Origin: Bdellovibrionota bacterium
GTDB taxonomy: Bacteria; Bdellovibrionota_C; UBA2361; JBIKUX01
Direction of reading: 5' to 3'
Assembly: GCA_044347345.1 (NCBI GenBank)
Contig: JBIKUX010000005.1
Coordinates: forward strand, 47,228-111,227
Length of the DNA stretch: 64,000 nucleotides
Shown here: in pieces, positions 21,743 to 64,000 of the stretch
Layout: each line of letters opens with the position of its first letter
Position numbering within the stretch: the stretch's first letter is position 1
Notes under the pieces: generated by a model
Databases searched by the model: none
Seen by the model: the letters and a program-made list of their open reading frames with translations, nothing else
Told to the model about the DNA's origin: nothing
Program-made: the position numbers and the translations under genes

Positions 21743-24241
21743 GTGCAAAATTTTTTGGAGGATTTACTTCTTTCTACTTTATCCTGGTTTTTTACCTGGA
21801 ACGGAGGGCTCATACTTGTTTGGCTAGGAGCAATTGCCGGAATTGGTTATCAATTCTTGCGGGGCAAAGGAAATATGACCCCAGCATTAATTGGTTTTGG
21901 TTTTCTTCTAGCAGCGCTTTATCACATGTCGAAAGGTGAGTCTTTTGCTCGGTCAGTTGAAGAATATTTAAAGAGACGCGACTCTTCAGACTTTTATCGA
22001 CCAGCAGCTCCCTTAGGAGAAAAACTATTTTCGTCTTTCCTTGGTGATCCATCCGAAAGGAGTTTTGTGTCTGAAATATTTCTTGTCTTTTTTGTCTGTT
22101 ATATATTTATCGCACTTCTTGAGTCTTTTAGGGCTCGTAAAGGGCAAACAATAGGCAGTCAGTCGGCCTTAAGCTCTCTCTGGAGCCTATTTGCTCGTAA
22201 GCAACAAATTCGTCCTGCTCGTTCCTACACTAACGAGTTAGGTTCAGGAGATCTCGCTACCACAGAACAAATCCTTAAGTGGTGTAAACCTTCAGGTAAG
22301 CCTGGGGATACTGTTCTTAAAGTTACCGACCTTCGTGGCTCTGAAGGTATAGCCCTCAAGAACGGTGCGGTAGTCTGGCCCCGTGACATGCGTAATCGTC
22401 ACATTCTAATTATTGCTAAAACAGGTAGCGGTAAAACTACAAAAATGATTTTACCTGTTCTCTATAGTGACTGCATATGTAAGACGCGCTCCACTATTGT
22501 TATCGACTCTAAACCTGAAATGTGGAAGAAGCTGGCAGGGCTAACCGCAAAGTATAACCCTGAAAAGGAGATTCTACTTTTTAATCCTCTAGACCGAATT
22601 AGAAGCTTAAGTTGGAACATTCTCTCCAAGATAAGTGACGATACAGACGCTAAGCTTATCGCGAACACTATCGTAATGGCTACCGATGTACCTGGTGCTA
22701 AATCAGACAGCCCTTTTTTTCGTAATAATGCTCTTGCTATCCTAAATGCGATAATGGTCGGGCTTCTTCATGACCCCAATGATGTCTTATCAATGCCACG
22801 CATACATGAGCTTGTTCAATCAGGGATAAAACCCCTATGCTCGTGGCTTGAACAACATCCTCAAGCTTACCGAACTACTAGAACATTTACCGAGCTTGCC
22901 AAATCTGGTTCACAAAATGCCGATACCATAATGTCGGAATTAAGTATGAGACTTGCCGCCTGGGATTTAACGGCGATAAGAGCGACAACTAGTGAAAATG
23001 AGTTGGATCTTGAAAAATTAATTGAAAAGCCAACGCTTCTTATAGTTGAGTTTCGAGAGTCAGAGCTCGAGATGCTACGCCCAATGGCTAACGTAATCGT
23101 TGTAGAGATTCTCCGATTTCTCACCAAGCGTGCTGAACAGATGGAGGGAGTTACTCTGCCCCGGCCAGTAAGTTTAGTCATAGATGAGTTTGCTTCGGCA
23201 CTAGGTCGCTTACCCGATATTCACGTTAAACTAAACACCATCAGATCTAGAAACGTCAGCATTTGTGCCGCGATACAGTCTACTGCGCAAGTTAAGGCTA
23301 ATTACGGCGACGATGCAGACTCCGTACTTGCTGGTTTCAGCACAAAGATATTCATGCCAGCGCTAGACTTGGTTGACTCCGAATGGGCCTCTAAGGAATC
23401 CGGTCAGATGACAATCAGATTTAAAACAGCTTCGATTGGTTCCAATAAAAAAATTATTGAATTCTTTGCGAGCCGAAACGATAGCGTGCAGGAGCAAGTG
23501 CAACAGCGCGCTGTGCTCACGCCTGACGAAATAGGTCGCCCTGTAGATAACATTTCTACCTTCTTTTTACCAAGTACCCCAGTGTTTCAAGGGTTTTTGG
23601 TGCCGTATTATGAAGATTCTGAAATAGGATCGCGTATCAATGAGGCTGAGCATTCTGAGACTGAATACCAGCTTCGTAATGAACCAATATCTTTTAAAGA
23701 AAAACTACCCGACCCTCCGACAACTGACCAATCGTCTGGTATGTTCATGCCTCTAGGAATATCGAATACTAAGGGGTGGAGTGATGAACAACTGCGTAGC
23801 AGACTAGAAGCTATTAAGAAAGATTACTTAGAATGGCCAAAAACCTCTGGTAGCGCTAAGAAGTGGTGGGAATCTTTTGAAAGTGAAAATCAAAACAGGC
23901 TCGCTTTAGTTTTCCGTCTTGCAGAAGAACTTAAGAATCGTAAAGCTACCATTACCGAATTCTTTCTCTCATACGTTTACAGTAATACAGATAATATCCA
24001 AGCTAACCTTCATTATCTTGACTACACCCGCATTAAAAAAGAAGAAGAGCGTAAGCGTAAAGAGGCTGCACAACAAGCAGCTACCGAAAAGAATAATAGC
24101 GACAAAGATAACAAGACTAGTACATCAGAAGCTAAACCTTCAAGCAGCACTCCATCTCAAAAGGAAAATAAGGAAAATTCTGTTAATACTAATACCAATA
24201 CAAAAACTAATAAGAGCGGAAACCAAGTAGCAGCCGCTTAA
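21743..24241 (+). CDS. Type IV secretion coupling protein, VirD4/TraG family, with extra C-terminal domain
   Basis: N-terminal TMs; Walker A AKTGSGKT; Walker B SLVIDEF; RSRNVSICAAIQSTAQV..NYG motif. Confidence 0.85.
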   Translation: MQNFLEDLLLSTLSWFFTWNGGLILVWLGAIAGIGYQFLRGKGNMTPALIGFGFLLAALYHMSKGESFARSVEEYLKRRDSSDFYRPAAPLGEKLFSSFLGDPSERSFVSEIFLVFFVCYIFIALLESFRARKGQTIGSQSALSSLWSLFARKQQIRPARSYTNELGSGDLATTEQILKWCKPSGKPGDTVLKVTDLRGSEGIALKNGAVVWPRDMRNRHILIIAKTGSGKTTKMILPVLYSDCICKTRSTIVIDSKPEMWKKLAGLTAKYNPEKEILLFNPLDRIRSLSWNILSKISDDTDAKLIANTIVMATDVPGAKSDSPFFRNNALAILNAIMVGLLHDPNDVLSMPRIHELVQSGIKPLCSWLEQHPQAYRTTRTFTELAKSGSQNADTIMSELSMRLAAWDLTAIRATTSENELDLEKLIEKPTLLIVEFRESELEMLRPMANVIVVEILRFLTKRAEQMEGVTLPRPVSLVIDEFASALGRLPDIHVKLNTIRSRNVSICAAIQSTAQVKANYGDDADSVLAGFSTKIFMPALDLVDSEWASKESGQMTIRFKTASIGSNKKIIEFFASRNDSVQEQVQQRAVLTPDEIGRPVDNISTFFLPSTPVFQGFLVPYYEDSEIGSRINEAEHSETEYQLRNEPISFKEKLPDPPTTDQSSGMFMPLGISNTKGWSDEQLRSRLEAIKKDYLEWPKTSGSAKKWWESFESENQNRLALVFRLAEELKNRKATITEFFLSYVYSNTDNIQANLHYLDYTRIKKEEERKRKEAAQQAATEKNNSDKDNKTSTSEAKPSSSTPSQKENKENSVNTNTNTKTNKSGNQVAAA

Positions 24242-24305: not shown

Positions 24306-26045
24306 TTAGGAGAGCGGGCCCAATCCGGTACTTTCTCTTAAATTGGGTGCGTCGTTTAAAAGTGTTGCACGGTCTGTACCAAGTGCGCTACAAGCAGCAT
24401 CTACCAAAAATTGGAAATTGCTCTTTTTTGAAGAGTGTCCCTTTTGCATATCCAACTCATCTATCAATTTTAGTAAAAGTGGCCCAGCAACCTCTTTTAG
24501 TTCAGCTCGGCTAACACTATCATCGTTAAGACCGTACAAAAGCGTGATAAAAACTTTAAGATACATCTCCAAATTTTTATCGCTATTTCTACCTCTGCCA
24601 AAGAATACGGCAAGTATGCCAACATTCACATTCACATTAAAATTATTTATCACTACTTTTAAATTATTCGTAAACTCATTAACAACAGCCCGCTTGTCTT
24701 GGCCAGAGGTAGCATAATAGAAACGGCATACGAAAGCTTTTAAGGTTTCATTTCCATAAATTGTTTCAATATCTGGAGGCGTAATTCGATTTTCACCTGC
24801 TTCTTGAGCCTTCGTACTAAAACTGTTAATTAAACTTTGAAATTGTTCTTTTGTTGTAGTAGTCGAATTTGGCACGGGTGTGTTAACCTCATACGTAACG
24901 ACTCTTCGTGGCGCAGTGTAATTAACTAATCCTGTTCTTTCTAACATGCTTACAATTCTGTTCAGTTCTTGTGCAGTTAAATCACGATCTGGCGGCTGAT
25001 TCATCCTAGCTAGCAGTTTGGCTATCTCTTTCTTAATATCAATAATATCACCGCTGTTATTAGTAACCCTTGAAACTATTGTACTAACCTTTAAATTTAG
25101 GTCTCTCAATTCTCTCTCAACATCTGTTATCTGTGTCCCGTAAAGGGCCCTAAGTTCCTCCAATTCTAGCCCCAGACTTGAAACTGCCCTTTCAACATTT
25201 CCAAGTCTTCCTTCAACATCACTCTTTAACATTTCTAGTGACGCTTTTATGGAATCTACAATACTACGTAAACCATTATAATCTGTCTTTACTTCTCTAA
25301 TAGCTTGCTGGTTTAGCATTGCTAGTTTTCCAATATCATCTATTTGCTGCGAATGGGTCTTAATAGTGCTTTGTATTTGACCTAACTGGTCTTGAAAACC
25401 TTGTATTGCTTGCCTGTTTTCCGCAATATTGCTGGTGTTTTTGTTAACCTGTTGAGTAAGTTTTCCTACGCTGGTTCTTAAATTTTCCAAATTGTGAAAC
25501 AACTCTGTAATTTGAGTCTTATATTGATCTAGCACGGATTCAATATTAGTTACCCGACCTTCAAGAGTTTCTATCGCCTGCGTGTTTTGAGCTATCGCAG
25601 CCGTGTTTAGGCCTACCTGTTGTTCTATTTGCTAAAAAAGCGTTTGAAGCCTTTCAGTGGTTTTTAAGGCTAATTGGGCAGTCTTTTCAACATCCTGTAA
25701 TCTACCTTCAAACCCGTCAAGCCTTTTGGCTTGGTCATACTGTGTTCTAAGTATTTGTTCTATAATAGTTTGAGTTCTAGTACGTTCCTCGTTGAGCTCT
25801 GTAATTTGTTTATCGTGGTAATCTAATCTGGTTCCATGATTAGCCTGTGTGTTTTGTAAAATCGTTATTTTGCTCTCCAAACCTGCAATTGTTGCTCGCA
25901 ACTGATTAACTTGTGCTAGAGCTGCGTTTCCATCTGAATTGTTGCTTCGAGCTAAAAAAGCTTTATCAAACGACGTTTAATCTACGACTTCAACATCGCG
26001 GTGAGGGATATCATCTCCATCTGGAGCAGGCAATAGATTGGCCAC
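24306..26045 (-). pseudogene. Long coiled-coil protein gene interrupted by two in-frame stops
   Basis: Track ORFs 25632-25901 and 24306-25535 share one frame. The frame opens at GTG 26045, with TAA at 25977-25979 and TAG at 25632-25634. Heptad sequence is continuous across the TAG. Confidence 0.7.
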
Positions 26046-28016: not shown

Positions 28017-29082
28017 CCATACCCATTTTTCGCTCAGGTGGAAGCAATCCCTCAGGCCGCCACCTGATCATTAAAATAAGAGCTAGTCCAAACACAAAAT
28101 ATTTCCAATTGTTTGGCGATGCATACACAGAGCCTCCCGCTACTACCCCTTGCACAGATAGTAACCGCGTTAACCATCCAAGGAATAATGAGGTAAATCC
28201 CACGACTAATGCAGTCCCTAAAACGCTGCCCACAAGACTGCCCAGACCTCCAGTTATCACTATACACAAGGCGATAATAGATACTTGAAAATCAAAGTTA
28301 CTCGGCTCACCACTAGTACCGAGCGAAGCCGCCCACAATGCCCCAGATAATGACGCTAGTGCCGCCCCAAGAAATAGAGCTCGCATTTTATTTTTTGTCA
28401 CCGATATCTTCATACAACCGGCAACAATTTCATCAAGTGCCACTGATCTCCAAGACATTCCTTGAGGCGAGCGCTCGATATTAGCGATTGCCCAAGTGAT
28501 AAAAAATACCATAACGCAAAGTGTGTAATACCATAGTACGGGGCTGCCGGTTACAAGCGATATCCCGAACAATTCGGGAGAAGGTAAGGGAGAAATACCT
28601 TGCGTGCCTTTGGTAATAACTTCAAGGTTCTTCAAAATATCCTGAACTATTTCACCAAATCCTAAGGTAACAATAGCTAAATAATCTCCTCTTAATCTGA
28701 GGGTAGGAATCCCCAAAAAACAGCCAAACGCGCCTCCAAAAAGCCATGCTATAATCAGAGCTAACCACCCATTCAACTGAAAGGGATAAATTTGAGCGGT
28801 AAGAATAGCATAACTATAGGAACCTATAGCCATAAATGCGGCGATACCTAAATGAAGCAATCCGGTAATACCAGTTATTATGTGCAAAGAAAGACCAAGA
28901 AGAGTAAAAATGAGAATGTTCTGAACCGGTCGAATAAAATTACCATTCGCCGCAAATATAATATCTATTAGTGGTAAAAAAGAGAGAAACAAAGCATAGA
29001 GCAAGCCAGCTTTACGATGCGAAAACCTCGGAATCCCTGAATCGTCCAAACGCTCTGAAAATATTGCCATCAAGTACGCCAC
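28009..29082 (-). CDS. livM: Branched-chain amino acid ABC permease
   Basis: LRLRGDYLAIVTLGFGEI, GGLGS, WRPEGL. Confidence 0.92.
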   Translation of the reverse strand: MAYLMAIFSERLDDSGIPRFSHRKAGLLYALFLSFLPLIDIIFAANGNFIRPVQNILIFTLLGLSLHIITGITGLLHLGIAAFMAIGSYSYAILTAQIYPFQLNGWLALIIAWLFGGAFGCFLGIPTLRLRGDYLAIVTLGFGEIVQDILKNLEVITKGTQGISPLPSPELFGISLVTGSPVLWYYTLCVMVFFITWAIANIERSPQGMSWRSVALDEIVAGCMKISVTKNKMRALFLGAALASLSGALWAASLGTSGEPSNFDFQVSIIALCIVITGGLGSLVGSVLGTALVVGFTSLFLGWLTRLLSVQGVVAGGSVYASPNNWKYFVFGLALILMIRWRPEGLLPPERKMGMGA

Positions 29083-31331
29083 TACACTTTTTCTTTAATT
29101 TCACTACCCATTATGCCCCCAGGCCTGAATATCAAAACGGCTATAAGCACGGAAAATACCACAACATTAGTCCAGCTAGTTGCAATATAGTGATCACTAA
29201 AAGCCCGCAGAACACCGATCAACAAGCCGCCAATACAGGCACCAAAAAGGCTTCCAATACCACCAAGAACCGCAGCGACAAAGGCGTCCATTCCTACTCT
29301 GTAGCCCATCTGAAAAAAAACTGTGCCGTTAAACAAGGCGTACGCTGTCGATGCTACTCCAGCAAGAGCGCCACCAAGAAAAAAAGTGCGGGAAATTATT
29401 TTATCGACAGGGATACCCATTAACCGAGCCGCATCTACATTTTGTGCAACTGCTCGCATCGCCATACCCGTTTTAGAGTATTTGATAAAAATGGATAGAG
29501 ATAATAGCAGTGGAATCGTGATAACTGTCACCAAAAGATCTCGAGTGGTAAATGTAAGCCCTGACCCTGCGCTGAAAAGATTAACTGAAGAAAACAACGT
29601 TGGAAAATTCTTTGGAGCTGATGCAGCGTGCCCATTATCAAATACTTCAAGTGGCAAACCGCCCCAAAAAAGGCCGATATTGAGAAAAATAAAAGACACC
29701 CCTATTGCCGACACCAGCGGGGCTAAGCGAGAGGACTGCCTTCTCAGAGGACGATAAGCATAACGCTCAACCAAACAATTTAAACCACCAGTAAATAAAG
29801 GAACTAGTACCACTAACAGTATCCAAGTCAAAGGAGATGTTGAACCGAATATGCCGACAATCGTTAAAGCTAAAAATGCCCCAAGCATAAACAAATCACC
29901 GTGAGCAAAGTTAATAAGCTCAATGATGCCGTATACCATAGTGTACCCGAGCGCAATCAGCGCTATTATTGCACCATTAGAGAGCCCGGTTATAATCTGC
30001 TGGCGCAGTGTAGCTGAATTCGAAAATGCTGCCTCCTGAAAAGAGCCAACATCCTGAAAAGAGCTAACGGCTGCCTCATCAGTAGTATTTCTATTTGCAG
30101 CGGCAGGAGGAGTCACTATTTTACTCAAAAGAGAGTCATCTAGCAGCTCAACAAAATAAAAATTACCATTTTTTATGCCATTAAGACTCATCGTCTTAAG
30201 AGAAATATCACCGCTATCTTCAAAACTCCAAGTACCTAAGGCACCAGTGAAATCTTTGATATTCCGAACTTCTGCTATAATCTTACGCCTGTCTGCACTC
30301 TTAGCTCTGCGAAGACCTTCCAGAACTACCTTTGCAGCCTCATAACCATAAATTGCAAATGCCTCTGGCTGGACGCCAAAGGTTGCTAGATATTTCTTCA
30401 CAAAAACTGCACCTAGCCCCGTCAATTTTTGAGGCGGAAGACCGCCGAAGGTAAAAAAAGTATTTCCCTCCAAAACAGCAGCTCCAGCAGATGAAATAAA
30501 AGCCTGCTCAAAGCATCCATCTGGAACTATTAAAGTTGCGGTCACGCCGGAGTTACGCAAATCTTTTGCCAGTTGACCCCCGTTAGTTTGCGTAGTGCCA
30601 CCGTAGTAAACAATATCCGTTCCTCGACCACGAAGTAATGTAGCTAATGCCCTATAGTTAGAAGCCTTAGAATCAATGCCTTCATAACCTACTACTGAAC
30701 CTCCGCGCATTTTAAACTCACGGGCGAAAAGATCCGCTAAGCCCTTACCGTAAAGCTCTCTATCATGAATAACAAAGGCTCTATGTTTTCCTTGGGCACG
30801 CGCCCATTGAGCCGCTCGAGGGCCCTGAATATCGTCAGTAGGAAATACTCTAAAATAAGTTACCTCACCACTCGGTCGGTAAACCAAGGGTTCGCTAGCT
30901 TCACCGAATCCAGGTTTAGTCAAACCTGGCCAGGAATTAGCCGGGCTAACCATAAGCAGCGGTGCTCGGTTAAGTTTAGGCATTGAAATTTTTGCAGCAC
31001 CTGAGTTGTAGGTTCCAATGTAGGCTATAACACGAGGGTTAGCTATGGCACGATCAGCATTAGCGCCCTCAACTGCTGGATCCCAAGCTCCACGCTCAGG
31101 AGTAGCGTCATCCCAATCTTCGTAACGAATATCAAATTGAGATAAAGATGAACGCTCTTCCTCTATGGCAAGTGTAATACCATTAACTATTGCTGAGGTT
31201 TGTGAGTGCACACTTCCAGTTCTCGGCAAACTTGATACAATAATTACTTGATTATCGATTGCGTAACCGACTTGGAGAAAAATCAAGGTAGATAAAAGAG
31301 ATAAAGTTAAGAGAAAAAAAATTGCTCTCAT
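29082..31331 (-). CDS. Fused LivK/J-type substrate-binding protein and LivH-type permease
   Basis: Signal peptide; periplasmic domain (IGTYNSGAAK, YFRV, YGKGLAD); linker; LivH motifs ALIALGYTMVYGIIELINFAHG, AAVLGGIG, FRPGG. Confidence 0.9.
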   Translation of the reverse strand: MRAIFFLLTLSLLSTLIFLQVGYAIDNQVIIVSSLPRTGSVHSQTSAIVNGITLAIEEERSSLSQFDIRYEDWDDATPERGAWDPAVEGANADRAIANPRVIAYIGTYNSGAAKISMPKLNRAPLLMVSPANSWPGLTKPGFGEASEPLVYRPSGEVTYFRVFPTDDIQGPRAAQWARAQGKHRAFVIHDRELYGKGLADLFAREFKMRGGSVVGYEGIDSKASNYRALATLLRGRGTDIVYYGGTTQTNGGQLAKDLRNSGVTATLIVPDGCFEQAFISSAGAAVLEGNTFFTFGGLPPQKLTGLGAVFVKKYLATFGVQPEAFAIYGYEAAKVVLEGLRRAKSADRRKIIAEVRNIKDFTGALGTWSFEDSGDISLKTMSLNGIKNGNFYFVELLDDSLLSKIVTPPAAANRNTTDEAAVSSFQDVGSFQEAAFSNSATLRQQIITGLSNGAIIALIALGYTMVYGIIELINFAHGDLFMLGAFLALTIVGIFGSTSPLTWILLVVLVPLFTGGLNCLVERYAYRPLRRQSSRLAPLVSAIGVSFIFLNIGLFWGGLPLEVFDNGHAASAPKNFPTLFSSVNLFSAGSGLTFTTRDLLVTVITIPLLLSLSIFIKYSKTGMAMRAVAQNVDAARLMGIPVDKIISRTFFLGGALAGVASTAYALFNGTVFFQMGYRVGMDAFVAAVLGGIGSLFGACIGGLLIGVLRAFSDHYIATSWTNVVVFSVLIAVLIFRPGGIMGSEIKEKV

Positions 31332-41466: not shown

Positions 41467-43779
41467 GTGACTAAGAGACTGTGGGTAAATAGACTGTGGG
41501 TAAGAAACTACGTGTTAGAATCTGTGCCCCACTCAAAATTGCATTCCATACCATTTGGCTTCTCGCTTCCATTGTTCATCTTTGCAGCTCTCGCAACTTT
41601 TATAGCTCGTTTTGAATGTTTTGATCGAATCAATACTCACTCACTAAGCGGTACGTTAGGAGATGGGGGCATCTATTTATGGCTCTTATCCGTTGTGCCG
41701 CAAGCCTTAGATCCCGAAAATTGGTACAATGTTCCTGCCTTTTACCCTTACGGTCAGGCCTTAGCTTGGAGTGATAATTATATTCTACCCTCCCTGCTAT
41801 TAATGCTGCTAAGGTCATTTTCGACTCTTGCCCTACCCGTTCAATCACTAATTGTAGCACACAATGGTCTACTACTTGGGGCTACTGCTCTTACTGGTTG
41901 GTGTGTCAGTCGCCTGACTTTTCGTTTAACTGGCAGTTTACTACCAAGTTGTTACTCGTGTTTAGCCGTTATCTTCTGTCATTTTTTTATTGAGCATTTG
42001 GGTCATCCACAACTTCAGTATGGATTTTTTTTACCGCTATCGGCAGAAGTTGCTTTGCTGATAACGTCTGCATCGACATCAAAATCGGACAAAAAAGCTA
42101 CAAAGATACTGAGAGCTGTGCTCCTAGGTATAGTCGTTGGATGTGCCTTCCTAACCGCGGTATACTACGGAATTTTTTCAGCCTCTATTGCCATAATTAT
42201 CCTTCTTTGTTGGTTAGCAACTGCATTTAGTCGCCGTTGTATAGCTGAGCTAACTTATCTGGTCTTTGGAGGCATTCTCGGATTTTCTCCTTTTATCCCT
42301 TTTTTATTGCCTTATTTTGCTACCGAGGCAACTTTTGGACAAAGAAATCTTTACGAAGCTTATTACTTTTCAGCACATCTTTTATCTTATCTTTCAGCAG
42401 GACCGCTCCATACCTATTCTGGTATACTTGGAAAATCAACCTGGTCTCACAGTGAAGCACATCTGTCATTAGGAATTATAAGCCCAATTCTCCTTCTTTG
42501 GGGTGCAGTTTCAACAAACTATTTACATAAATATAAAATTGGAATAACCGTTTGCTTTGCTTCCTTAATGTTAGCACTTGCTACTAATATTCATGGCTTA
42601 GGAATTCCTAGTCTAAAAGTTGCAAGCGCATTTCTTGCATGGATAGCTCTTACAAGTGGTGTTTTTGTATTTATCCAAAGCCAAAAACTTACTAACTCAA
42701 ATTCCATCCATTTAGGGGCATTAACGCTAGTAATACTTACTTCAATTATTTTCTCATTAGGACCTCTTGGTAATCCAGTTAAAGGTGAACTCGCTTTAGG
42801 TCCATTTGCAGTAGCTCATCAATTCATACCTGGTATGGGGGGGATTAGAGCTGTAAGCAGATGGGGAGTGGTGGTATTAATCTTTTTACCTGTTATAGCT
42901 GCAGTCCTGGCTCACAGGGCTTATAAACAAATAGCCCTAGCAAAAACATACAAACGAGCCTTTTTTCAATATTTTTTTTGGTTATCCTTCATGATTCTAG
43001 TGTTTCTAGAGCAATACACCACAGGATACGGGAAAGGGATGGAAGAATTACCGAAGATTCCTCCCGTAGTACACAGTATGACAAGAAGTGAAAAAAATTC
43101 AGGAGCAATCATTTTTCTGCCGATGAGTCATCCTCTTAGCTCTACTGGAGAGATACTATCTTGGAGCGATTTTATTCGTCGAAATATCACCGCTATGAAC
43201 GCATCAGTTCACTTAAATATGCCTACTGTTAATGGATATTCGGGAGTAAAAACAAAAATTATGCGAGACTTACCAAGAAGAACTCGCTTGTTTCCTGACG
43301 AAAGAAGCTGTACAGCTCTTCAAGAAATATCAGGATTAAAATTTGTAGTTTGGGAACAACACAATAAACTCGTGATACCAAAATCTTTACCATCATGCCT
43401 TAGCTATCTAGGTCATGACGATACCGGCTATCATCTATTTAAAATAAAAGATGAGGTTCCGCTAAATGGTGAACGCACCGTAATAGCCTCTCCAACATCA
43501 ACAAGTATTTTACTACAATTTAGTGGCTGCAACGCAGTTACTATCCAAGAATCAATTAATAAAAACGTCATTTCGACTAGCGATCTTAATCTAGTTGGTC
43601 ATGCTACAAAAAGAGTTATTTGCCCATCTAAAATTACATCAACAAAAATGGCACCGCGCTATTGGCAAATTAAACCTAGCTCATCAAAGCCAGAAAATAC
43701 CTGTTTTTTCTCAGTAACAAAAGCCCCATCTGTGCCCTATTCGATTGATGAAATTGCTGGTAGATGCTTTTTGGATTAA
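41467..43779 (+). CDS. Polytopic membrane protein, probable GT-C-fold glycosyltransferase (YfhO/PMT-like)
   Basis: More than 10 TMs; N-terminal loop GD..IYLW...[27 protein letters not shown]. Confidence 0.65.
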
Positions 43780-45953: not shown

Positions 45954-47180
45954 CTAATTCCTGTTTTTACAGCCATAACAGTCCGATTTAATAACTGCGA
46001 CCACTCTTCCCGGATACTTTTGCATACCTGCGCGAAATCCTGATTTTTCACCAGTACCAAAAAAAATATCAACCCTTTCAACTCCTACAATTGCTCCCCC
46101 CGTATCTTGAGCTGACATAATACCCATAAGTGGCTCTAACTTGAACTTTTCCTCGCTACTACCCTCAGAATCTACTGCTACAGTTTCAACAAAAAGAGGA
46201 GTACCTAAGGGATATATCTTAGGGTCGACAGCAACACTTCTTTGTGGTGTAAGCGGTACTCCTAAACTCCCAATCGGCCCTTCGCCCTCTGCAGAGGATA
46301 TAATCCGAAAAAACACGTAACTTTCATCATAGGTGAGAGTTTGTTGCAGATATTGCGGATTTTCTCGAAGAAAAGCCCTGATTCGTTGCATTGATACCTC
46401 ACTACTTGTCAAAAAACCTTGTTCAATAAGGTAGCGACCAATAGGACGATATGGATGTCCATTTTTGTCTGCAAAACCGACTTTAACTATTCGATTATCA
46501 GGCAACACTATTTGACCAGAACCTTGAATATGAAGAAAAGCTCTATCAACTGGATCTTTTAACCAAGCAATTTCCAATCCTCGCCCTGAGAGCGCTTGCT
46601 CATAATCAATCTGTTTTCTCGAAAAGTATGGGACTAATGAACCATCACTAATCCGTCTAGCTCTTCCCAAAGTAAATCTTTTCGAATCTTCACTATGAAC
46701 AAGGTCATCAGGTAATCCGTAGAGAGGGAATCTATGTGCAGGTGTTGGCACAAGAGAGCCGTAAATAACCGGCTCATAGTAGCCTGTTATTAGGCCTTTT
46801 CCTGAGTCTTCACTGCAAATAGCAATAAAATTACGTTCAAGAAATTTTGCCAGTGCTTCTCCCTCTCCCCACTGACGTACGCTATCAGCGATAATAAGAT
46901 TAGACGATATGAGATCTGAACGCGTAACTGTTAGAGGTCCAAGAGTCAGAAGAGCAGAAGAGTCACGTTTTGCAAGACTTGATGCAGTTGCCTCAAGGGT
47001 ACGAGCTACTTGTTCCCGATCCGAAAAGCTAGAAGCACTATTATTATCACCGCTAAAAATTTTGGCTAGAGTGCCAGACTCACATATAACTAAACTGATA
47101 GGACTAATCTTGCGTGCACACCCAAATCCACCGCAAAAAAAGATCGCGATAAGCGCTAGTAATCTCAAAAAATGATACAC
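45954..47180 (-). CDS. mltA: Membrane-bound lytic murein transglycosylase A
   Basis: Lipobox GFGC, TGYYEP, FLHIQGSG, NGHPY, SYVFF, AVDP, QDTGGAI, DIFFG. Confidence 0.93.
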   Translation of the reverse strand: MYHFLRLLALIAIFFCGGFGCARKISPISLVICESGTLAKIFSGDNNSASSFSDREQVARTLEATASSLAKRDSSALLTLGPLTVTRSDLISSNLIIADSVRQWGEGEALAKFLERNFIAICSEDSGKGLITGYYEPVIYGSLVPTPAHRFPLYGLPDDLVHSEDSKRFTLGRARRISDGSLVPYFSRKQIDYEQALSGRGLEIAWLKDPVDRAFLHIQGSGQIVLPDNRIVKVGFADKNGHPYRPIGRYLIEQGFLTSSEVSMQRIRAFLRENPQYLQQTLTYDESYVFFRIISSAEGEGPIGSLGVPLTPQRSVAVDPKIYPLGTPLFVETVAVDSEGSSEEKFKLEPLMGIMSAQDTGGAIVGVERVDIFFGTGEKSGFRAGMQKYPGRVVAVIKSDCYGCKNRN

Positions 47181-48311
47181 AAACCCTCCCCCCCTCTAAC
47201 ACGAAGAAATACTGACTCATCAGAGCTATACGATCATGCTTGGGAGTATATCACCGCATTTCTCTCGCAGAAGAGCCCTGAAACTCAACGTACCTACAAA
47301 ACTGTTCTTAGGGAATTTACCTCTTTTTTGGGAAGTAGTTACGGTACGAGTAAAGCAGCTCAGGTTTTGTGTCGCGTTGATGAACGAATTGTTCTATCAT
47401 ACAGGGAATGGATAACTCACCTGCCAGGACAAACAAGCACGGTAATTCGTGCGAGTTATTCAAATTCAAATGAACAATGTTCCCCTACCACTACTTATCT
47501 TTTTAACCAAAGTCCCGTCCACCCAACCCAAACGCCACACTCCAAGCGTGATGGTTTTCAGAGAACAGCGGGAAACGCCACGATAAGAAAAAAACTCACC
47601 ATAATGCGACGTATCTACCGCGCGTTGTCGCCGATAATTTCTCATAATCCTTTCGATACCGATCTAATCTCCATACCCTCCGAAAGGTCTGGAATGAAAC
47701 GTCCTACACAATTGCTCTCTAATTTGGAGGTCACTAAACTTCTTGCACTTCCAGATCGTGCATCTATTAAGGGCTCACAAGACTACTGTATCCTTGCTCT
47801 TTTATTTGGATGTGGGCTAAGGCGAGGAGAAATAGCGCGGCTAGCTATGGGAGACATAGGAACCTCAAGAAAAAAAGACCTTCTAACGGTTACTCTTAGA
47901 GCGCCCAAAGGAGGAAAAGATGCAACTCTGCCACTACCATCTTGGACAGCCTCAGCAGTAAAAACCCAAAAATTTCTGCGTGAAAGTCACGGAGCCTCAT
48001 CCAGAGATCCACTGTTTGTTGGATTTAGCGGAAGAGGCGGTATTATTCCAACAACTCGCCCTATCTCAGTTGAAAGTATTTATACGATGTTTCTAAGATA
48101 CTCTAAGCTGGCGAATCTAGCTTTAGGAGTTGCGCCTCATGCCGCAAGAGCAACAGCTATTACTACATTGCTTGATCGTGGGTTTTCCCACCGAGATGTA
48201 AAAAACTTTTCTCGGCATTCTAGTATTCAAATGGTAGAGGTATATGACAAACGTCGACTTGAAATAGAAGATAATCCTGCTTTAAGTCTTGATTATGAAA
48301 CTAAAAACTAG
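47172..48311 (+). CDS. Tyrosine recombinase/integrase
   Basis: Catalytic set GLRRGE (R), PKGGK (K), PHAAR (HxxR), SRH (H), EVYD (Y). Confidence 0.9.
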   Translation: MIHKPSPPLTRRNTDSSELYDHAWEYITAFLSQKSPETQRTYKTVLREFTSFLGSSYGTSKAAQVLCRVDERIVLSYREWITHLPGQTSTVIRASYSNSNEQCSPTTTYLFNQSPVHPTQTPHSKRDGFQRTAGNATIRKKLTIMRRIYRALSPIISHNPFDTDLISIPSERSGMKRPTQLLSNLEVTKLLALPDRASIKGSQDYCILALLFGCGLRRGEIARLAMGDIGTSRKKDLLTVTLRAPKGGKDATLPLPSWTASAVKTQKFLRESHGASSRDPLFVGFSGRGGIIPTTRPISVESIYTMFLRYSKLANLALGVAPHAARATAITTLLDRGFSHRDVKNFSRHSSIQMVEVYDKRRLEIEDNPALSLDYETKN

Positions 48312-60922: not shown

Positions 60923-61651
60923 TTAAGTAGTCGGGCTAGTGTTATTCGTAGTTATGCTTCGCCAAAGACTCTTAAACGGCCATGCTACGACACTAATTAA
61001 GGCTTGAGCCGCTTTAACCATATAGGTACCACATTGTGAGTAGCTCTTTAGAGAAAACAAATTGTTAACACTGGTTCTAGTGGGGCAAAAAAGGTAATAA
61101 AATAAAGGAGCGCCAATCAGTGCAAGTTGAGGAGCACCAACAAAATAGCTTAACGTGCCAAAAAGTTGCCCCACGCCAAATGCTTTAAAACAATTTAATA
61201 AAGTAGAATCATATCTTTGATTTTCAGATGCATTATAAGATCCTCCAAAAGTCATCGCTAAAGAGATTAGAGCGACTACTGGCACAACCACAGGTGAGAT
61301 GCTAGCACTTGTAGCTGTAAGTAATGAAACAGCAAGCGGTGCTGAATTAATTGCAATAAGGCTAGAGACAGATTTTCCAATAGTAAAGTCGATTACAGTT
61401 TGACCGCACCAATTAAGTAGAGATGTAACTGGCTCTAGTAGCTTTTTAAAGGAAAACAATGATTGTCTTTGATTAGGCTGGCTGTTAGCAGAATTTCCTA
61501 AACTAGGCCCCTGGATGTGAGATGCAGGTTGCGGTTGATTAACACCTCCACCTTCAGAGGGCTTAAAGGAAGTGTTAAGAAGATTGCCATTCGGAGATTG
61601 TTGCCTAGTCGTTTCATCGGTAGTAGCCGTTCTCCCGGTCCGGTTAATCAT
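60923..61651 (-). CDS. Hypothetical membrane protein with disordered N-terminus
   Basis: Q/S/N/P-rich first ~65 aa followed by paired hydrophobic segments. Confidence 0.6.
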   Translation of the reverse strand: MINRTGRTATTDETTRQQSPNGNLLNTSFKPSEGGGVNQPQPASHIQGPSLGNSANSQPNQRQSLFSFKKLLEPVTSLLNWCGQTVIDFTIGKSVSSLIAINSAPLAVSLLTATSASISPVVVPVVALISLAMTFGGSYNASENQRYDSTLLNCFKAFGVGQLFGTLSYFVGAPQLALIGAPLFYYLFCPTRTSVNNLFSLKSYSQCGTYMVKAAQALISVVAWPFKSLWRSITTNNTSPTT

Positions 61652-61732: not shown

Positions 61733-64000
61733 TTAAGCAAAATAACTAAAACTAAGATTTAATAGTGACTTTAACCAAACAAACAACCTAAACCAAGGGG
61801 TTGCCACTTTTATCTCTATTATCTCCTGACCTGATTGTCCTAAACTTAAGACTGCACCCTTAGTAAGGTATGGGCACTTAGGATCAAATAGTTCTCTAAG
61901 AAACTCAGCTAAACCCGATGGTTGAATTTCTTCTGTACTACTAAAAGAAGTTTCTAATACCAGAGGGTTCTCATGATAATCAGGTACAGTAACAATCTGT
62001 ATTAATTCATTATTTTCTGGATCCAACACAAAAAATACTACTCCTGAATCTGGTCTTAAAGGGTCAATAGGGGCTTTCCCCAAGATTATAAACTGTTTGG
62101 ATAAAAAATTTTCAATCTCACCTGAATTAATATTTCCAGCTACAGTTATCTGAGGTAAATCAAGCGGAAGCTCAACACCAAGCCCAAATGTTCCCATCTG
62201 TTCCCTTCTGACTTGTTTTTCTAAATATTCAGGAATAGTAATGGTTGGAGATGATTTTTGCCGGCAAATAACTTTTATTTCACCTGCGGGAAAGTTTACC
62301 TCCCAAGTGGTCACTGCAGCTTTTAGCTCGAATCTAGCCACTTCTTCTGTGACCTTAAGCTTACCCATAAAGAGTTTAGCTAATACTTCTTGGTTATGGC
62401 CAAATGCCGAGTAGGTTATTGTTTGATTTTTTGACCGGTCAGAAATTAGGCCTTGTATTAGTTTCTGAGCTGCACTTAAAAGCGGCTCTTCTCTAAGTTG
62501 AATTATTTTAGTGAGTTTCCACTTAAAAAACTTAATAACATATGGTGGAATAAAAATATTGATGTTTTGCTGTGCCTGGTTTGTAGCACTTGTATAATTT
62601 AAAATTACCATTTGCAGAGCCCCTATAGGCCCTGCAAAACTTATAATATTTTTTTCTGGCGAAATAATACAAGTCGTAAATGACGACATCAATTTATGCT
62701 TGGGTTGAAACTCTTCTTTGCAAAGGCTCTCTAAAAGCTCGGTTTTTGCAGATAAGTCTGGCAGACTCTGTAATTGGTTATCATAAGAGCTGAAATCAGA
62801 GACTGAAAAATCAACAGACTTACCCAAAAAAATTAATAGATCAGTAAATTTAGCAAGCGGTGCTACTAATTTATTAATCCAAACATGTAACTGAGCTACT
62901 ACATGTTTATCCCCTTCTGCTAAAAGTAGTGCAACAAGGCTTATAAGCTTCTGATAAAATACGGAGTAAGTAATTGAAAGGGTTTTTAATTCGTTCAAAT
63001 TATAATTAATCGTGTCTATAAAGCCCAGTGGAGTTAAAGAACTAGGGGGAGCTCGTTTTTGCTCATCGATTACTTTTTCATTTAGTGACTCAAGTAATTG
63101 TGACTTAATATATTGTAAAGTGTTCGGAAATAAATCATTTAAAGAAGCTAGCCCTTTAAAAATTAATAATCTCTCAAAAATACTTCTATAACGCTCCCAA
63201 ATAGAAAATCGTGCAGGATCTTTTGTGTGTCTATCTACAAGTTCTAAAAGCTCAGTCTTAGTAGATTGAACTTGAACCGATTCTTTCCATTCTGTATGAT
63301 CCTCGCCAGCTAAAGAAAACATTCGCTCAATTAACTCTTTATATAGACGAGGTAATGAACTAGCCCCCCCTATCTTCTTTTCAATTTCTTCAGCAAGTAG
63401 AAGATAATAAGGACCTCGCTTTTTCACATAGTCTAAATCTATATCTTCTTTATCTTCTTCTTTTTTAGTAATATATGTAGCAAGGTCGCTCAAACAATTC
63501 TGGAGATTATCTGCAAGTTTAATTAAAGCTGGTATTAATAATATTAAATCCTTAAGCTTATCTTTGAAAACTTCCAAATCACTTGGTTTAGTCATAGCCA
63601 GAATTAACCCAGCCACCAAAAAAGCGGTATCTTTGGGTGTCTCTGACTGCGGATAGTCCTCTTTAGGCCTTTTAGTAACAAGCGTAATAATGGTAATGAG
63701 GGAGTTTAAAAAATCATCAGTTAATGCGCTGTTGCTGCTGTGAGCTTGATTAGCTTGAAAGCTCCTTAGTGTTATTGCTAACCTTTGAGGAGTGCTGCCA
63801 GTATCTTCTAGAAAATCATGGGCGATAGCTGCTAAAAGCACTAAAGATATGACATCATCTGAGTCATCATGTTGATCTAAGTGATAATTGTTTAGAAGCT
63901 CTTTTACTACTTCAACCGCTATAGTAGCGACAGGGACAAGGTGACCATCAAAATAGCTACCTCCGTCTCTTCTTCTTTGACCAGAATGACAAGCTTGTAT
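61733..64000 (-). CDS. Large protein with N-terminal RelA/SpoT-type HD hydrolase domain (5' end outside window)
   Basis: Frame is open to the window edge: IQACHSGQRRRDGGSYFDGHLVPV...AAIAHDFLEDT...ITLVTK...LIKLADNLQN. Confidence 0.8.
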   Translation of the reverse strand: MQACHSGQRRRDGGSYFDGHLVPVATIAVEVVKELLNNYHLDQHDDSDDVISLVLLAAIAHDFLEDTGSTPQRLAITLRSFQANQAHSSNSALTDDFLNSLITIITLVTKRPKEDYPQSETPKDTAFLVAGLILAMTKPSDLEVFKDKLKDLILLIPALIKLADNLQNCLSDLATYITKKEEDKEDIDLDYVKKRGPYYLLLAEEIEKKIGGASSLPRLYKELIERMFSLAGEDHTEWKESVQVQSTKTELLELVDRHTKDPARFSIWERYRSIFERLLIFKGLASLNDLFPNTLQYIKSQLLESLNEKVIDEQKRAPPSSLTPLGFIDTINYNLNELKTLSITYSVFYQKLISLVALLLAEGDKHVVAQLHVWINKLVAPLAKFTDLLIFLGKSVDFSVSDFSSYDNQLQSLPDLSAKTELLESLCKEEFQPKHKLMSSFTTCIISPEKNIISFAGPIGALQMVILNYTSATNQAQQNINIFIPPYVIKFFKWKLTKIIQLREEPLLSAAQKLIQGLISDRSKNQTITYSAFGHNQEVLAKLFMGKLKVTEEVARFELKAAVTTWEVNFPAGEIKVICRQKSSPTITIPEYLEKQVRREQMGTFGLGVELPLDLPQITVAGNINSGEIENFLSKQFIILGKAPIDPLRPDSGVVFFVLDPENNELIQIVTVPDYHENPLVLETSFSSTEEIQPSGLAEFLRELFDPKCPYLTKGAVLSLGQSGQEIIEIKVATPWFRLFVWLKSLLNLSFSYFA

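Follow-up and report, generated by a model that had tools for sequence, protein, structure and literature searches.

A predicted RSH-type hydrolase domain in an 845-residue protein from an uncultured Bdellovibrionota-like lake bacterium

Introduction

Two kinds of RelA/SpoT-homologue (RSH) hydrolase have been described, namely the N-terminal half of long Rel/SpoT enzymes and the small single-domain alarmone hydrolases, or SAHs (PMC3153485, PMC9765508, PMC12691689). The SAHs are single domains of ~140–210 residues (PMC3153485, PMC9765508), and known SAHs also cleave NADPH (PMC9765508). A solved complex of human MESH1 contains PAPS, as stated in its entry title. The catalytic motifs of the domain are HD1 (Arg), HD2 (His), HD3 (His-Asp), HD4 (Glu-Asp), HD5 (Asp and Arg/Lys), and HD6 (Asn) (PMC9293644); in many SAHs, the second HD5 position is occupied by a hydrophobic residue (PMC9293644). 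In this work, a protein encoded by an uncultured lake bacterium is compared with both classes.

Full-length gene

The window (the whole stretch of 64,000 nucleotides that was analysed) coincides at its end with the end of contig C4, which is reached by a minus-strand frame with an open 5' end and 755 residues within the window. The first 127 bases of contig C35 from the same genome are identical to the last 127 bases of C4, and the last 60-mer of C4 is unique among the 68 contigs of the genome apart from this join. The upstream part of the frame, which the earlier note expected beyond the window edge, was thus retrieved from C35, and the joined protein (P0001) has 845 residues:

61733–64000, minus strand, window part of the P0001 gene (residues 91–845 and the stop codon at 61733–61735)
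contig C35, L084 positions 128–397, minus strand, residues 1–90 of P0001 (127-base overlap with C4)

The protein is also found whole, as an 845-residue record of a public collection matched at 100% by both contig pieces. A second public record (P0124) differs solely by V/M at residue 1, and the same protein is called from other assemblies.

The gene is a single open frame of 845 codons. Its codon log-likelihood is −3.87 in frame, where the two alternative frames give −5.03 and −5.09, and lies at the 98th percentile among 1,069 long ORFs. The DNA is indeed AT-richer, as the earlier note remarked, but modestly so: the coding sequence has 35.8% GC, whereas the same ORFs average 40.9% (sd 3.0), which puts it at the 4th percentile, with GC3 at the 14th percentile and a codon usage typical of the genome. 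A recent foreign origin was considered and is ruled out, because the codon usage is native, GC3 is unremarkable, and the flanks are housekeeping genes. The gene is real and lineage-restricted, and belongs to an uncultured Bdellovibrionota-like lake bacterium.

Sequence and predicted fold of the hydrolase domain

The putative RSH-type HD hydrolase domain covers residues ~68–300, and its window part is as follows:

63371–64000, minus strand, RSH-type HD hydrolase domain, window part (residues 91–300)

The motif-by-motif likeness to the Rel of the same window (2749–5049, minus strand, 766 residues), whose own hydrolase domain looks intact, was proposed in the earlier note and is borne out by BLASTP. 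Residues 82–264 of P0001 align with residues 59–188 of Rel with 49/185 identical positions (E 1e-5), pairing HSGQRR with HSPQRR, AHDFLEDT with LHDTIEDT, LVTK with GVTK, and KLADNLQN with KLCDRLHN. Comparison with a profile of 20 long RSHs by hhalign covers residues 68–259 (probability 96.4%, E 1.4e-9). An HMM of 95 small HD_4 proteins, built with the query left out, scores P0001 at 60.1 bits (E 8.2e-17 among 7,757 genome frames); Rel alone is placed above it, with 66.2 bits, and the best unrelated frame is at E 0.54. In a phmmer search of 1.84 billion representatives, three small HD proteins match the HD region with E between 5e-5 and 8.5e-4 (one of the three passes Pfam HD_4). The phage family phrog_990, annotated as 'metal-dependent phosphohydrolase', matches at E 2.1e-4. 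The identity is ~26% to any relative and 18–22% to the solved SAHs.

The Pfam HD_4 profile (PF13328, curated cut-off 27.2 bits) gives no match to P0001 at E≤1 and, when run over the entire genome, detects Rel alone; the generic HD model PF01966 reaches 15.2 bits, under its cut-off of 22. A missing HD_4 hit is what the earlier note had set against its own reading, and on this point the profile check went against it. The missing hit is nevertheless overruled by four positive tests (BLASTP to Rel, hhalign, the leave-one-out HMM, and the superposition by VIA-align given below), which are more sensitive and in part independent of one another. A phmmer search of PDB sequences with the window part of P0001 gave no RSH match.

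Two other database matches were discarded as repeat artefacts. PDB entry 7rdr, a designed repeat protein, owes its low E-value to the addition of eight repeats of 3–4 bits each, and P0002, the best non-self hit of the 1.84-billion search, is a five-fold repeat protein aligned to residues 314–361.

P0001 keeps 10 of the 10 invariant columns of a 97-sequence alignment, which correspond to HD1–HD6. The motif residues, placed by the alignment columns, are encoded at:

63941–63973, minus strand, HD1 R100 (codon 63971–63973) and HD2 H110 (codon 63941–63943), 10 residues apart
63803–63820, minus strand, HD3 H151-D152 and HD4 E155-D156, in AIAHDFLEDT
63497–63511, minus strand, HD5 D254 (followed by N255) and HD6 N258, in KLADNLQN

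Of the six catalytic motifs, HD5 alone departs from the pattern, with its Asp kept but Asn (N255) in place of Arg/Lys; the other five are intact. The predicted Mn2+ ligands (H110, H151, D152 and D254) and the putative catalytic residues E155 and D156 are all retained, with two insertions interrupting the domain.

The AF2 model of the domain has a mean pLDDT of 79.9 and a pTM of 0.80, with one of the two insertions modelled below pLDDT 50. The best 20 rows of VIA-align are all RSH hydrolases (Z 11.8–13.2, rmsd 2.9–3.7 Å, 142–167 residues), although a Z of ~13 is not exceptional among helical models and other HD families follow closely, namely YpgQ (Z 11.6) and phosphodiesterases (up to 10.9). 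Foldseek of the same model returned no match at E≤0.001 (best 0.023). The model shows an all-helical HD fold that can be superposed on solved RSH hydrolases, a match that is not independent of the sequence evidence, because the alignment given to AF2 consisted of HD_4 proteins. Sequence and model together support the N-terminal part of P0001 as a divergent RSH-type (Mesh1/SAH/Rel-like) hydrolase domain, in a protein that is hydrolase-only.

Comparison with known RSH proteins

The SAHs used for comparison were RelH of C. glutamicum (7QOD), the L. levettii SAH (7QOE), PaSAH (6YVC), the (p)ppApp hydrolase of B. caccae (7SMG), and Mesh1/MESH1 (3NQW, 3NR1, 5VXA). P0001 shares with them the all-helical HD fold (predicted model, ~3 Å), motifs HD1–HD4 and HD6, the HD5 Asp, and the hydrolase-only content. 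The spacing between HD1 and HD2 is 10 residues, as in bacterial SAHs (PMC9293644), whereas it is 9 in the Rel of the window and in RelSeq. P0001 differs from the SAHs in its length of 845 residues, a polar leader of ~65 residues, the two domain insertions, a unique C-terminal part of 545 residues, the lack of a Pfam HD_4 score, and the Asn in HD5; by length, it is not a small single-domain SAH in the strict sense. The 183 listed matches of the domain profile among proteins of 86–420 residues are 143–211 residues long.

With the long RSHs (the Rel of the window, T. thermophilus Rel, 6S2T and 7OHG, and SpoT, 7QPR), P0001 has in common the N-terminal position of the HD domain and a protein length of ~750–850 residues, and these structures superpose on the model with comparable Z values (12.0–12.9). 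In contrast to them, P0001 has no detectable RelA_SpoT synthetase, TGS, AH/RIS or ACT domain, and cannot be classed as a long RSH with synthetase, TGS and ACT/RRM. A synthetase is present in all 52 longer database matches of the domain profile but not in P0001.

The three proteins matched by phmmer, P0003 (198 residues), P0004 (207) and P0005 (158), are small metagenomic HD proteins and, once the repeat artefact P0002 is set aside, the only ones that this search connected with P0001. They share with P0001 the patterns H-x-GQ-x-R-x-DG-x-x-Y-(F/Y)-D-x-H, HD-x-x-ED, TK, and KxxD-x-x-x-N, and P0003 and P0004 also the HD1–HD2 spacing of 10. Unlike P0001, all three are stand-alone domains with neither the insertions nor the C-terminal part, and the identity of 29–43% extends over 70–110 residues only. 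A phage collection gave one weak match to P0001, a phage pyrophosphohydrolase (E 0.03), and three to P0005, which are too weak for assignment to a SAH subfamily.

In the full tree (51 of the 95 small-protein rows kept), P0001 joins P0003, a grouping flagged as a meeting of long branches; with P0003 left out, the domain is nearest to the long RSHs. The AU test rejects no placement, and P0001 and the long RSHs as one clade have p 0.86. As to a place between the small SAHs and the long RSHs, the tree cannot separate the domain from the latter. No counterpart of the P0001 architecture was found in the databases or literature searched.

C-terminal part and ends of the protein

The remainder of the protein comprises:

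61736–63370, minus strand, C-terminal 545 residues (301–845), with no detectable relative
61736–61801, minus strand, last 22 residues, moderately hydrophobic and amphipathic, with no predicted transmembrane helix

Residues 301–845 have no relative among the 1.84 billion representatives, in agreement with the more than 500 unrecognised residues reported before. The statement that no synthetase motifs follow the HD domain also holds: neither Pfam nor profile comparison finds synthetase motifs, RelA_SpoT, TGS or ACT, and residues 265–845 match the long-RSH profile at E 0.31, against 0.29 for the reversed sequence. NCBIfam and PADLOC give no match for P0001, and residues 291–845 contain no internal repeats. 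The AlphaFold model of residues 300–845, calculated without an alignment, has a mean pLDDT of 36.7; at this low confidence, it appears helical up to ~residue 530 and mixed alpha/beta thereafter. The ESM Atlas gave no usable match for residues 290–845, the scores for residues 540–845 (0.77–0.84 only) lying in the range of shuffled sequences. Pore-forming-toxin families are found among the nearest named Atlas clusters of residues 540–845, at scores of 0.77–0.80 that are often due to chance, and are recorded as a lead only.

The leader of ~62–65 residues is polar and rich in Ser, Asn and Leu, and the N-terminus does not resemble a signal peptide. At the other end, the hydrophobic tail noticed earlier is real but modest. 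Only 6.3% of 1,096 long-ORF C-termini are more hydrophobic than the last 18 residues, and the mean Kyte-Doolittle value of the tail is 0.94, well below that of a transmembrane segment, with no 19-residue tail window at 1.6. The whole of P0001 contains a single such window (residue 433, 1.61). The proposed membrane anchoring finds no transmembrane segment by this scale and is not upheld.

Neighbourhood and occurrence

The P0001 gene is flanked on one side by genes for an epimerase, UDP-glucose dehydrogenase and a glycosyltransferase, and on the other by those for an orphan membrane protein, an amine oxidase and an epimerase. A neighbouring ORF lies downstream:

60923–61651, minus strand, orphan ORF of 242 residues, 81 bases downstream of the P0001 stop

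The N-terminal half of its product is polar and is followed by hydrophobic segments. No terminator-like site was found on the minus strand between the two genes, and the promoter and terminator scans are at chance level.

Wherever contigs of four lake sequencing runs cover the P0001 gene, they are identical to it; some of these pieces come from two RNA libraries. Lake samples with dates from 2017 to 2024 show no change in the gene. The pieces in the RNA libraries are not a proof of transcription, because DNA can occur in such libraries, and stretches of the gene left uncovered in those RNA runs carry no information. The identity of all lake contigs with the window leaves no variants for judging selection. 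Searches of first 40 and then 90 other genomes of the order gave no orthologue, and the genome itself has no paralogue. P0001 is therefore a singleton of one lake population, for which comparative evidence cannot be brought, and conservation cannot show that the catalytic site is under selection.

Genomes of the same order do contain non-Rel SAH-like HD genes, of which three loci were read (lengths refer to the longest open frame):

L096:1312-2871, non-Rel SAH-like gene, 519 residues
L097:1351-2082, non-Rel SAH-like gene, 243 residues
L090:1249-2118, non-Rel SAH-like gene, 289 residues

They encode an HD core with GG-x-RYFEH, HD-x-x-ED, TK and KxADRxxN, and in the longest open frames polar N-terminal extensions precede the domain. 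The two that were compared with P0001 by BLASTP are similar to it in the HD core only (E 0.011 and 7e-5), and by their sequences these genes are not orthologues.

Proposed function and alternative explanations

P0001 is a real hydrolase-only RSH protein of 845 residues, and probably, though by no means surely, removes the 3'-diphosphate from (p)ppGpp- or (p)ppApp-type nucleotides in a metal-dependent manner. By sequence and model, residues ~68–300 fold as an RSH hydrolase domain in which the predicted Mn2+ ligands H110, H151, D152 and D254, the catalytic pair E155/D156, the base-stacking R100, and the HD6 residue N258 are kept. The reaction would be the one carried out by Mesh1, RelH and PaSAH and by the hydrolase moiety of Rel. 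The polar leader and the unique 545-residue C-terminal part may set where or when hydrolysis takes place. Besides the HD_4 miss, the altered HD5 and the insertions, it speaks against this reading that the genome already has an intact-looking hydrolase domain in its Rel, and that known SAHs also act on NADPH. The earlier reading of a new multi-domain alarmone hydrolase stands in its account of an RSH-type hydrolase-only domain, of a large multi-domain protein, and of an architecture with no counterpart found; its enzymatic part is kept here as a prediction.

A decayed paralogue of a long RSH, in which a Rel-type duplicate kept the hydrolase, lost all recognisable synthetase, TGS and ACT sequence, and serves as a cytoplasmic SpoT-like regulator with the C-terminal part as its remodelled regulatory region, is unlikely. 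Counted from where the HD domain begins, P0001 has ~765–780 residues, close to the 766 of the Rel in the window, the profile pairs the Rel-typical helix MLLAMsKD with LILAMTKPSD, and the domain is nearest to the long RSHs in the tree without P0003, in a clade that the AU test does not reject. Against this origin stands the region after the domain, which matches the long-RSH profile no better than its reverse, has no RelA_SpoT, TGS or ACT in Pfam, and in the low-confidence model is helical where Rel has the alpha/beta synthetase. Moreover, the HD-region matches of the 1.84-billion search are small proteins and no long RSHs, the HD1–HD2 spacing is that of bacterial SAHs and not of Rel and RelSeq, and the full tree, though subject to long-branch attraction, joins P0001 to small SAH-like rows.

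It is rather improbable that P0001 is an exported effector that breaks down the alarmones of a target after delivery into prey, a host cell or the periplasm, and would thereby block the target's stringent response or its alarmone- or toxSAS-based abortive defence, with the C-terminal part acting in translocation or targeting. By the nearest relatives of its Rel (62–70% identity, MAGs so labelled), the organism is a member of Bdellovibrionota, but a predatory lifestyle of this lineage is an assumption. The genome has surplus type III export-gate genes (three of the FlhA/SctV and two of the FlhB/SctU family), with one FHIPEP gene adjoining a 310-residue YscJ/FliF-family protein and a small TPR protein, and the window carries a VirD4/TraG-type coupling protein; VirB4 and TssC were not found in the genome, however, and no secretion genes lie beside P0001, whose neighbours are sugar-nucleotide enzymes. 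Effectors are often fast-evolving singletons, as P0001 appears to be, and the polar 62-residue N-terminus, free of a signal peptide, would be compatible with export. The pore-forming-toxin names of the Atlas agree with this reading as well, but their scores are within reach of shuffled sequences. Still less probable is the bolder form, in which P0001 would be the first exported RSH hydrolase, an 'enzyme plus delivery' that erases (p)ppGpp/(p)ppApp in another cell. If true, a Bdellovibrio-like bacterium would disarm the stringent response or alarmone-based defence of another cell, and the helical middle and the beta-rich C-terminal end would serve translocation and targeting. P0001 would then be to alarmone hydrolysis what the exported synthetases reported in 2025 (PMC12691689) are to alarmone synthesis.

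Self-protection, with P0001 as a type IV antitoxin or immunity-like protein that degrades (p)ppApp or depyrophosphorylates tRNA, is also improbable, and so is the associated source of a toxic small alarmone synthetase in the own cell, a competitor, or a phage. SAHs of the PbcSpo and PaSpo groups, phage ones included, neutralise all tested toxSAS (PMC7229694), and the proteins closest to the domain are similar to phage phosphohydrolases (phrog_990, and the pyrophosphohydrolase at E 0.03). The antitoxin role suggested in the earlier note is not borne out by the neighbourhood, where no RelA/SpoT-type synthetase gene adjoins P0001, so that the arrangement of a SAH beside its synthetase, as in a toxSAS–SAH module, is absent. 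The genome does have a second RelA_SpoT-like gene, the only other one, but it is weak (25.5 bits) and located on another contig, C45, between phosphatase genes. PADLOC, as noted, finds nothing, and the known antitoxin SAHs are small single-domain proteins, which leaves the 545-residue addition unexplained.

An inactive or non-alarmone protein, with the HD domain as a nucleotide-binding relic or acting on another phosphorylated substrate in a fast-evolving, species-specific gene whose function is not conserved, would suit the singleton status, the altered HD5, the large insertions, the HD_4 miss and the low GC, but is very unlikely, as all metal ligands and the Glu-Asp pair are kept at ~26% identity to any relative, and the intact 845-codon frame has native codons and was unchanged in lake samples from 2017 to 2024.

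Significance

A hydrolase-only domain within an 845-residue protein with a large unrelated body falls into neither of the described classes, and P0001 is a hydrolase-only RSH in a new and so far unique architecture. Pfam HD_4 misses divergent but catalytically complete members, so that such proteins are undercounted when alarmone metabolism is surveyed in uncultured lineages. Bdellovibrionota is a phylum known for attacking other bacteria. If P0001 is active, alarmone degradation can be coupled to another function, such as localisation, sensing or delivery.

Gene and deposited protein

The protein under study, P0001, has 845 residues and is encoded at the right edge of the window, next to an orphan ORF; the window also holds a long RelA/SpoT homologue (RSH), Rel:
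61733-64000, minus strand: P0001, 755 residues within the window, 5' end open
60923-61651, minus strand: orphan ORF of 242 aa, the next gene downstream of P0001
2749-5049, minus strand: Rel, with HD_4, RelA_SpoT, TGS, AH/RIS and ACT domains

The right edge of the window (positions 47228-111227 of contig C4, genome G000) is also the end of the contig. C4 shares an exact 127-base overlap with the start of contig C35 (checked by script), and its terminal 60-mer is absent from every other of the 68 contigs. The upstream sequence that the earlier note wished to see retrieved lies on C35, which completes the frame to 845 aa by 90 further residues, up to a TTG-GTG start pair with stop codons and an AT-rich spacer (238 bases) ahead of it. 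The true start is uncertain because the first 225 codons contain no ATG. The product is deposited as a single protein, to which both contig pieces are 100% identical; a second record, P0124, differs only by M for V at residue 1.

The gene is intact. With the genome's own codon table, its in-frame codon log-likelihood is -3.87 per codon (98th percentile among 1,069 long ORFs) versus -5.03 and -5.09 for the two alternative frames. The AT-richness noticed earlier is borne out by a GC content of 35.8% (4th percentile of the same ORFs; mean 40.9%, sd 3.0). GC3 is unremarkable (26.1%, 14th percentile), so the AT-richness comes mostly from a composition rich in Leu, Ser, Ile, Lys, Asn and Phe, and recent import of the gene was rejected on these grounds. 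The 23 runs listed as containing at least part of the stretch are labelled lake or freshwater metagenomes. Where contigs from two DNA runs and from two RNA libraries overlap the window, they agree with it base for base, with no variants; the RNA-library pieces within the gene (62374-62531 and 63495-63737) give a weak hint of transcription.

The N-terminal hydrolase domain

The N-terminal part of P0001 (residues ~68-300) is, with high confidence, an RSH hydrolase domain. All the motif pairs with Rel that had been read by eye were recovered by BLASTP, which aligns P0001 82-264 with Rel 59-188 (49/185 identical, E 1e-5). Curated libraries nearly overlook the domain: in Pfam it is matched by the generic HD model alone (E 0.026, 15.2 bits against a cut-off of 22), NCBIfam gives no match, and a scan of G000 with HD_4 finds only Rel. 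The HD_4 hit on P0001 anticipated by the earlier note thus failed to appear, but four more sensitive tests concur on an RSH hydrolase.

The exhaustive phmmer search (1,835,955,588 representatives, E<=0.001) returned four proteins besides P0001 itself. P0002 was discarded as a repeat artefact, while P0003 (198 aa), P0004 (207 aa) and P0005 (158 aa) align to residues 87-203. P0005 exceeds the Pfam HD_4 cut-off, P0003 falls just short of it, and Pfam offers nothing for P0004 at E<=0.01. A profile of the four sequences from this search recruited 183 proteins in the size range searched (86-420 aa). HD_4 is present in most of the 120 listed, whose lengths are 143-211 aa. When 95 recruits, with the query left out, were made into an HMM and the 7,757 frames of G000 were scored with it, P0001 reached 60.1 bits (E 8.2e-17), next to 66.2 bits for Rel and E 0.54 for the next unrelated frame. 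Against 20 full-length long RSHs, hhalign matches residues 68-259 with a probability of 96.4% (E 1.4e-9).

In PMC9293644, RSH hydrolases are described by six motifs: HD1 Arg, HD2 His, HD3 His-Asp, HD4 Glu-Asp, HD5 Asp with Arg/Lys, and HD6 Asn. The HD1 Arg stacks on the base, the HD4 Glu-Asp makes the nucleophilic attack, and HD2, HD3 and the HD5 Asp are the Mn2+ ligands. The corresponding residues of P0001 all occupy invariant columns of the 97-row alignment:
R100: HD1
H110: HD2
H151-D152: HD3
E155-D156: HD4
D254: HD5
N258: HD6

No predicted metal ligand or catalytic acid is missing. The sole departure is N255 at the usual Arg/Lys site of HD5, a site that is hydrophobic in P0004 and P0005 and, according to the same paper, in many small alarmone hydrolases (SAHs). 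The HD1-HD2 spacing is 10 in P0001, P0003, P0004 and, as stated there, bacterial SAHs, whereas it is 9 in Rel and RelSeq. The domain also carries two insertions, one of ~20 residues after HD4, ahead of the VTK element, and one of ~13 before KLAD.

AlphaFold2, run on residues 63-302 with the 97-row alignment, gave a mean pLDDT of 79.9 and a pTM of 0.80, with one stretch below 50 (204-214). The Foldseek ranking is headed by Mesh1, followed by the B. caccae (p)ppApp hydrolase, MESH1 and T. thermophilus Rel, with nothing at E<=0.001 (best E 0.023). In VIA-align the top 20 rows are RSH hydrolases throughout (Z 11.8-13.2, rmsd 2.9-3.7 Å over 142-167 residues), followed by YpgQ (Z 11.6) and cyclic-nucleotide phosphodiesterases (Z 10.9 or less). 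Other HD families score only slightly lower, and the alignment behind the model was made from HD_4 proteins, so the fold evidence, though supportive, is not independent of the sequence evidence.

The remainder of the protein

The >500 residues of unrecognised sequence pointed out earlier withstood every search. Pfam, NCBIfam, PHROG and PADLOC give no match for residues 301-845, which also have no genuine PDB sequence match, no match of any length among the phmmer representatives, no paralogue in G000 and no internal repeat. Their single-sequence structure prediction is not usable (pLDDT 36.7). The Atlas feature search returned nothing for 290-845; for 540-845 its scores are within reach of shuffled sequences, and the nearest named clusters, pore-forming toxin families (0.77-0.80), are a lead only. 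The hydrophobic tail exists, being moderate and somewhat amphipathic, but does not resemble the membrane anchor once suggested for it: the last 18 residues have a Kyte-Doolittle mean of 0.94 (rank 99 of 828 windows within P0001) and are exceeded in hydrophobicity by 6.3% of long-ORF C-termini in G000. The first 62 residues are polar (11 Leu, 10 Ser, 8 Asn, net charge -1) and lack the shape of a signal peptide.

Relatives and origin

P0001 is a hydrolase-only protein with a unique body. The domain profile, searched over proteins of 421-2000 aa (8,000 candidates scored, E<=0.001), matched P0001 and 52 others, every one of which has a RelA_SpoT synthetase domain. It also matches 86/90 other genomes of the order, overwhelmingly via Rel (open frames of ~720-790 aa); a few have extra non-Rel HD genes (open frames of 166-613 aa). 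Three such loci were read, and in the two compared by BLASTP the likeness to P0001 is limited to the HD core. A whole-protein match was found in none of 40 other same-order genomes, and G000 is the lone member of its family among those compared. In the titles, abstracts and text passages covered, the literature search found no large hydrolase-only or exported RSH hydrolase; a comparable case could be among the classified RSHs listed by Jimmy et al. 2020. P0001 is a divergent RSH hydrolase of new and so far unique architecture.

Among the SAH-like genes of the order, L096:1312-2871 (plus strand, genome G003) encodes 519 aa with an intact SAH-like HD domain and a second region resembling a degenerate HD repeat (AYDLAEHGYAY..., lacking the HD-x-x-ED motif); it would be a tandem SAH with one copy remodelled. 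L090 (genome G034) holds a pair of neighbouring SAH-like genes, of which the first seems to be degenerate.

That P0001 is a decayed Rel paralogue, a reading of its origin more than of its function, is unlikely yet the best placed of the alternatives. The stretch between the beginning of the HD domain and the C-terminus (~765-780 residues) has about the size of Rel, and the profile alignment matches a Rel-typical helix to LILAMTKPSD of P0001. With P0003 omitted the domain falls nearest the long RSHs, and one clade with them is not rejected by the AU test (p 0.86). Residues 265-845, however, score no better against a long-RSH profile (E 0.31) than the reversed-sequence control (E 0.29), and the exhaustive search ties the domain to small proteins and to no long RSH. 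In the full-set tree P0001 joins P0003 by a flagged long-branch meeting, so that the domain has no firm place in the tree.

Genomic context

The gene is flanked by chromosomal housekeeping genes. Upstream lie genes for an epimerase/dehydratase, UDP-glucose dehydrogenase, a glycosyltransferase, a lipid A acyltransferase and ribosomal protein S4; downstream, the 242-aa ORF is followed by convergent epimerase-family and amine-oxidase-family genes. The product of this ORF has no Pfam, NCBIfam, PHROGs or PADLOC match; its first 65 residues are polar and rich in Gln, Asn, Ser and Pro, followed by hydrophobic segments whose Kyte-Doolittle values reach 2.1 near residues 107-140.

Other features of the genome are:
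C63:70443-72416, C45:1126-3174 (L086:1090-3312) and C7:38307-40058 (L087:10272-12170): FlhA/SctV-family (FHIPEP) genes, three in all
C63:69275-70300 and C4:17631-22387: FlhB/SctU-family genes, two in all
21743-24241, plus strand: VirD4/TraG-type coupling protein (T4SS-DNA_transf, TrwB_AAD_bind, TraG-D_C)
47172-48311, plus strand: phage-integrase-family gene
29082-31331, minus strand: 749-aa single ORF, an unusual Peripla_BP_6 and BPD_transp_2 (branched-chain amino-acid ABC permease) fusion in a Liv-type transporter operon
41467-43779, plus strand (770 aa); 5695-7629, minus strand (644 aa); 8541-10568, plus strand (675 aa); 24306-25535, minus strand (409 aa): large ORFs without a Pfam family at E<=1e-4/1e-5; NCBIfam likewise has no match for the first three
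C45:12109-13224 (L085:2109-3224), minus strand: 371 aa, PF04607 RelA_SpoT synthetase-like match of 23.8-25.5 bits, below cut-off

G000 seems rich in large lineage-specific proteins. Among named genomes, the closest relatives of its Rel belong to MAGs with the labels Bdellovibrionota, Bdellovibrionales, Oligoflexia or 'Deltaproteobacteria', at 62-70% identity. The coupling protein and the integrase gene may be what is left of an integrated conjugative element.

Export of P0001 as an effector is improbable. A type III-like route is conceivable: the C7 FHIPEP gene lies near those for a sigma factor, a YscJ/FliF-family protein (310 aa) and a TPR protein (178 aa), and this cluster resembles a portion of a non-flagellar type III system. 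The C45 FHIPEP gene adjoins Tad-like pilus genes, a Ser/Thr kinase and an FHA protein, and neither VirB4 nor TssC was found in G000. Nothing connects the type III-like genes to P0001.

Self-protection against toxic synthetases is equally doubtful. The sole other RelA_SpoT-like gene of G000 is the weak one on C45 (25.5 bits), and around P0001 the toxin-antitoxin arrangement implied by the antitoxin idea of the earlier note is absent. The C45 gene has PP2C and SpoIIE phosphatase genes and one for a DUF2231 membrane protein as its neighbours; its product may be either a small alarmone synthetase of divergent sequence or some other nucleotidyltransferase. Least probable is an inactive or non-alarmone protein; the domain is probably catalytically competent. 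These readings are partly compatible with one another.

Proposed function

In the reading preferred here, Mn2+ would be held by H110, H151, D152 and D254, the base would stack on R100 together with N258, and E155/D156 would take the 3'-diphosphate off (p)ppGpp- or (p)ppApp-type nucleotides. The C-terminal 545 residues may set localisation, partner binding or regulation. The chances that the physiological substrate is an alarmone are about even; known SAHs can also cleave NADPH (PMC9765508). Since P0001 is a singleton, further progress will come by experiments only. The protein is of interest to RSH specialists and to the biology of Bdellovibrio-like bacteria.
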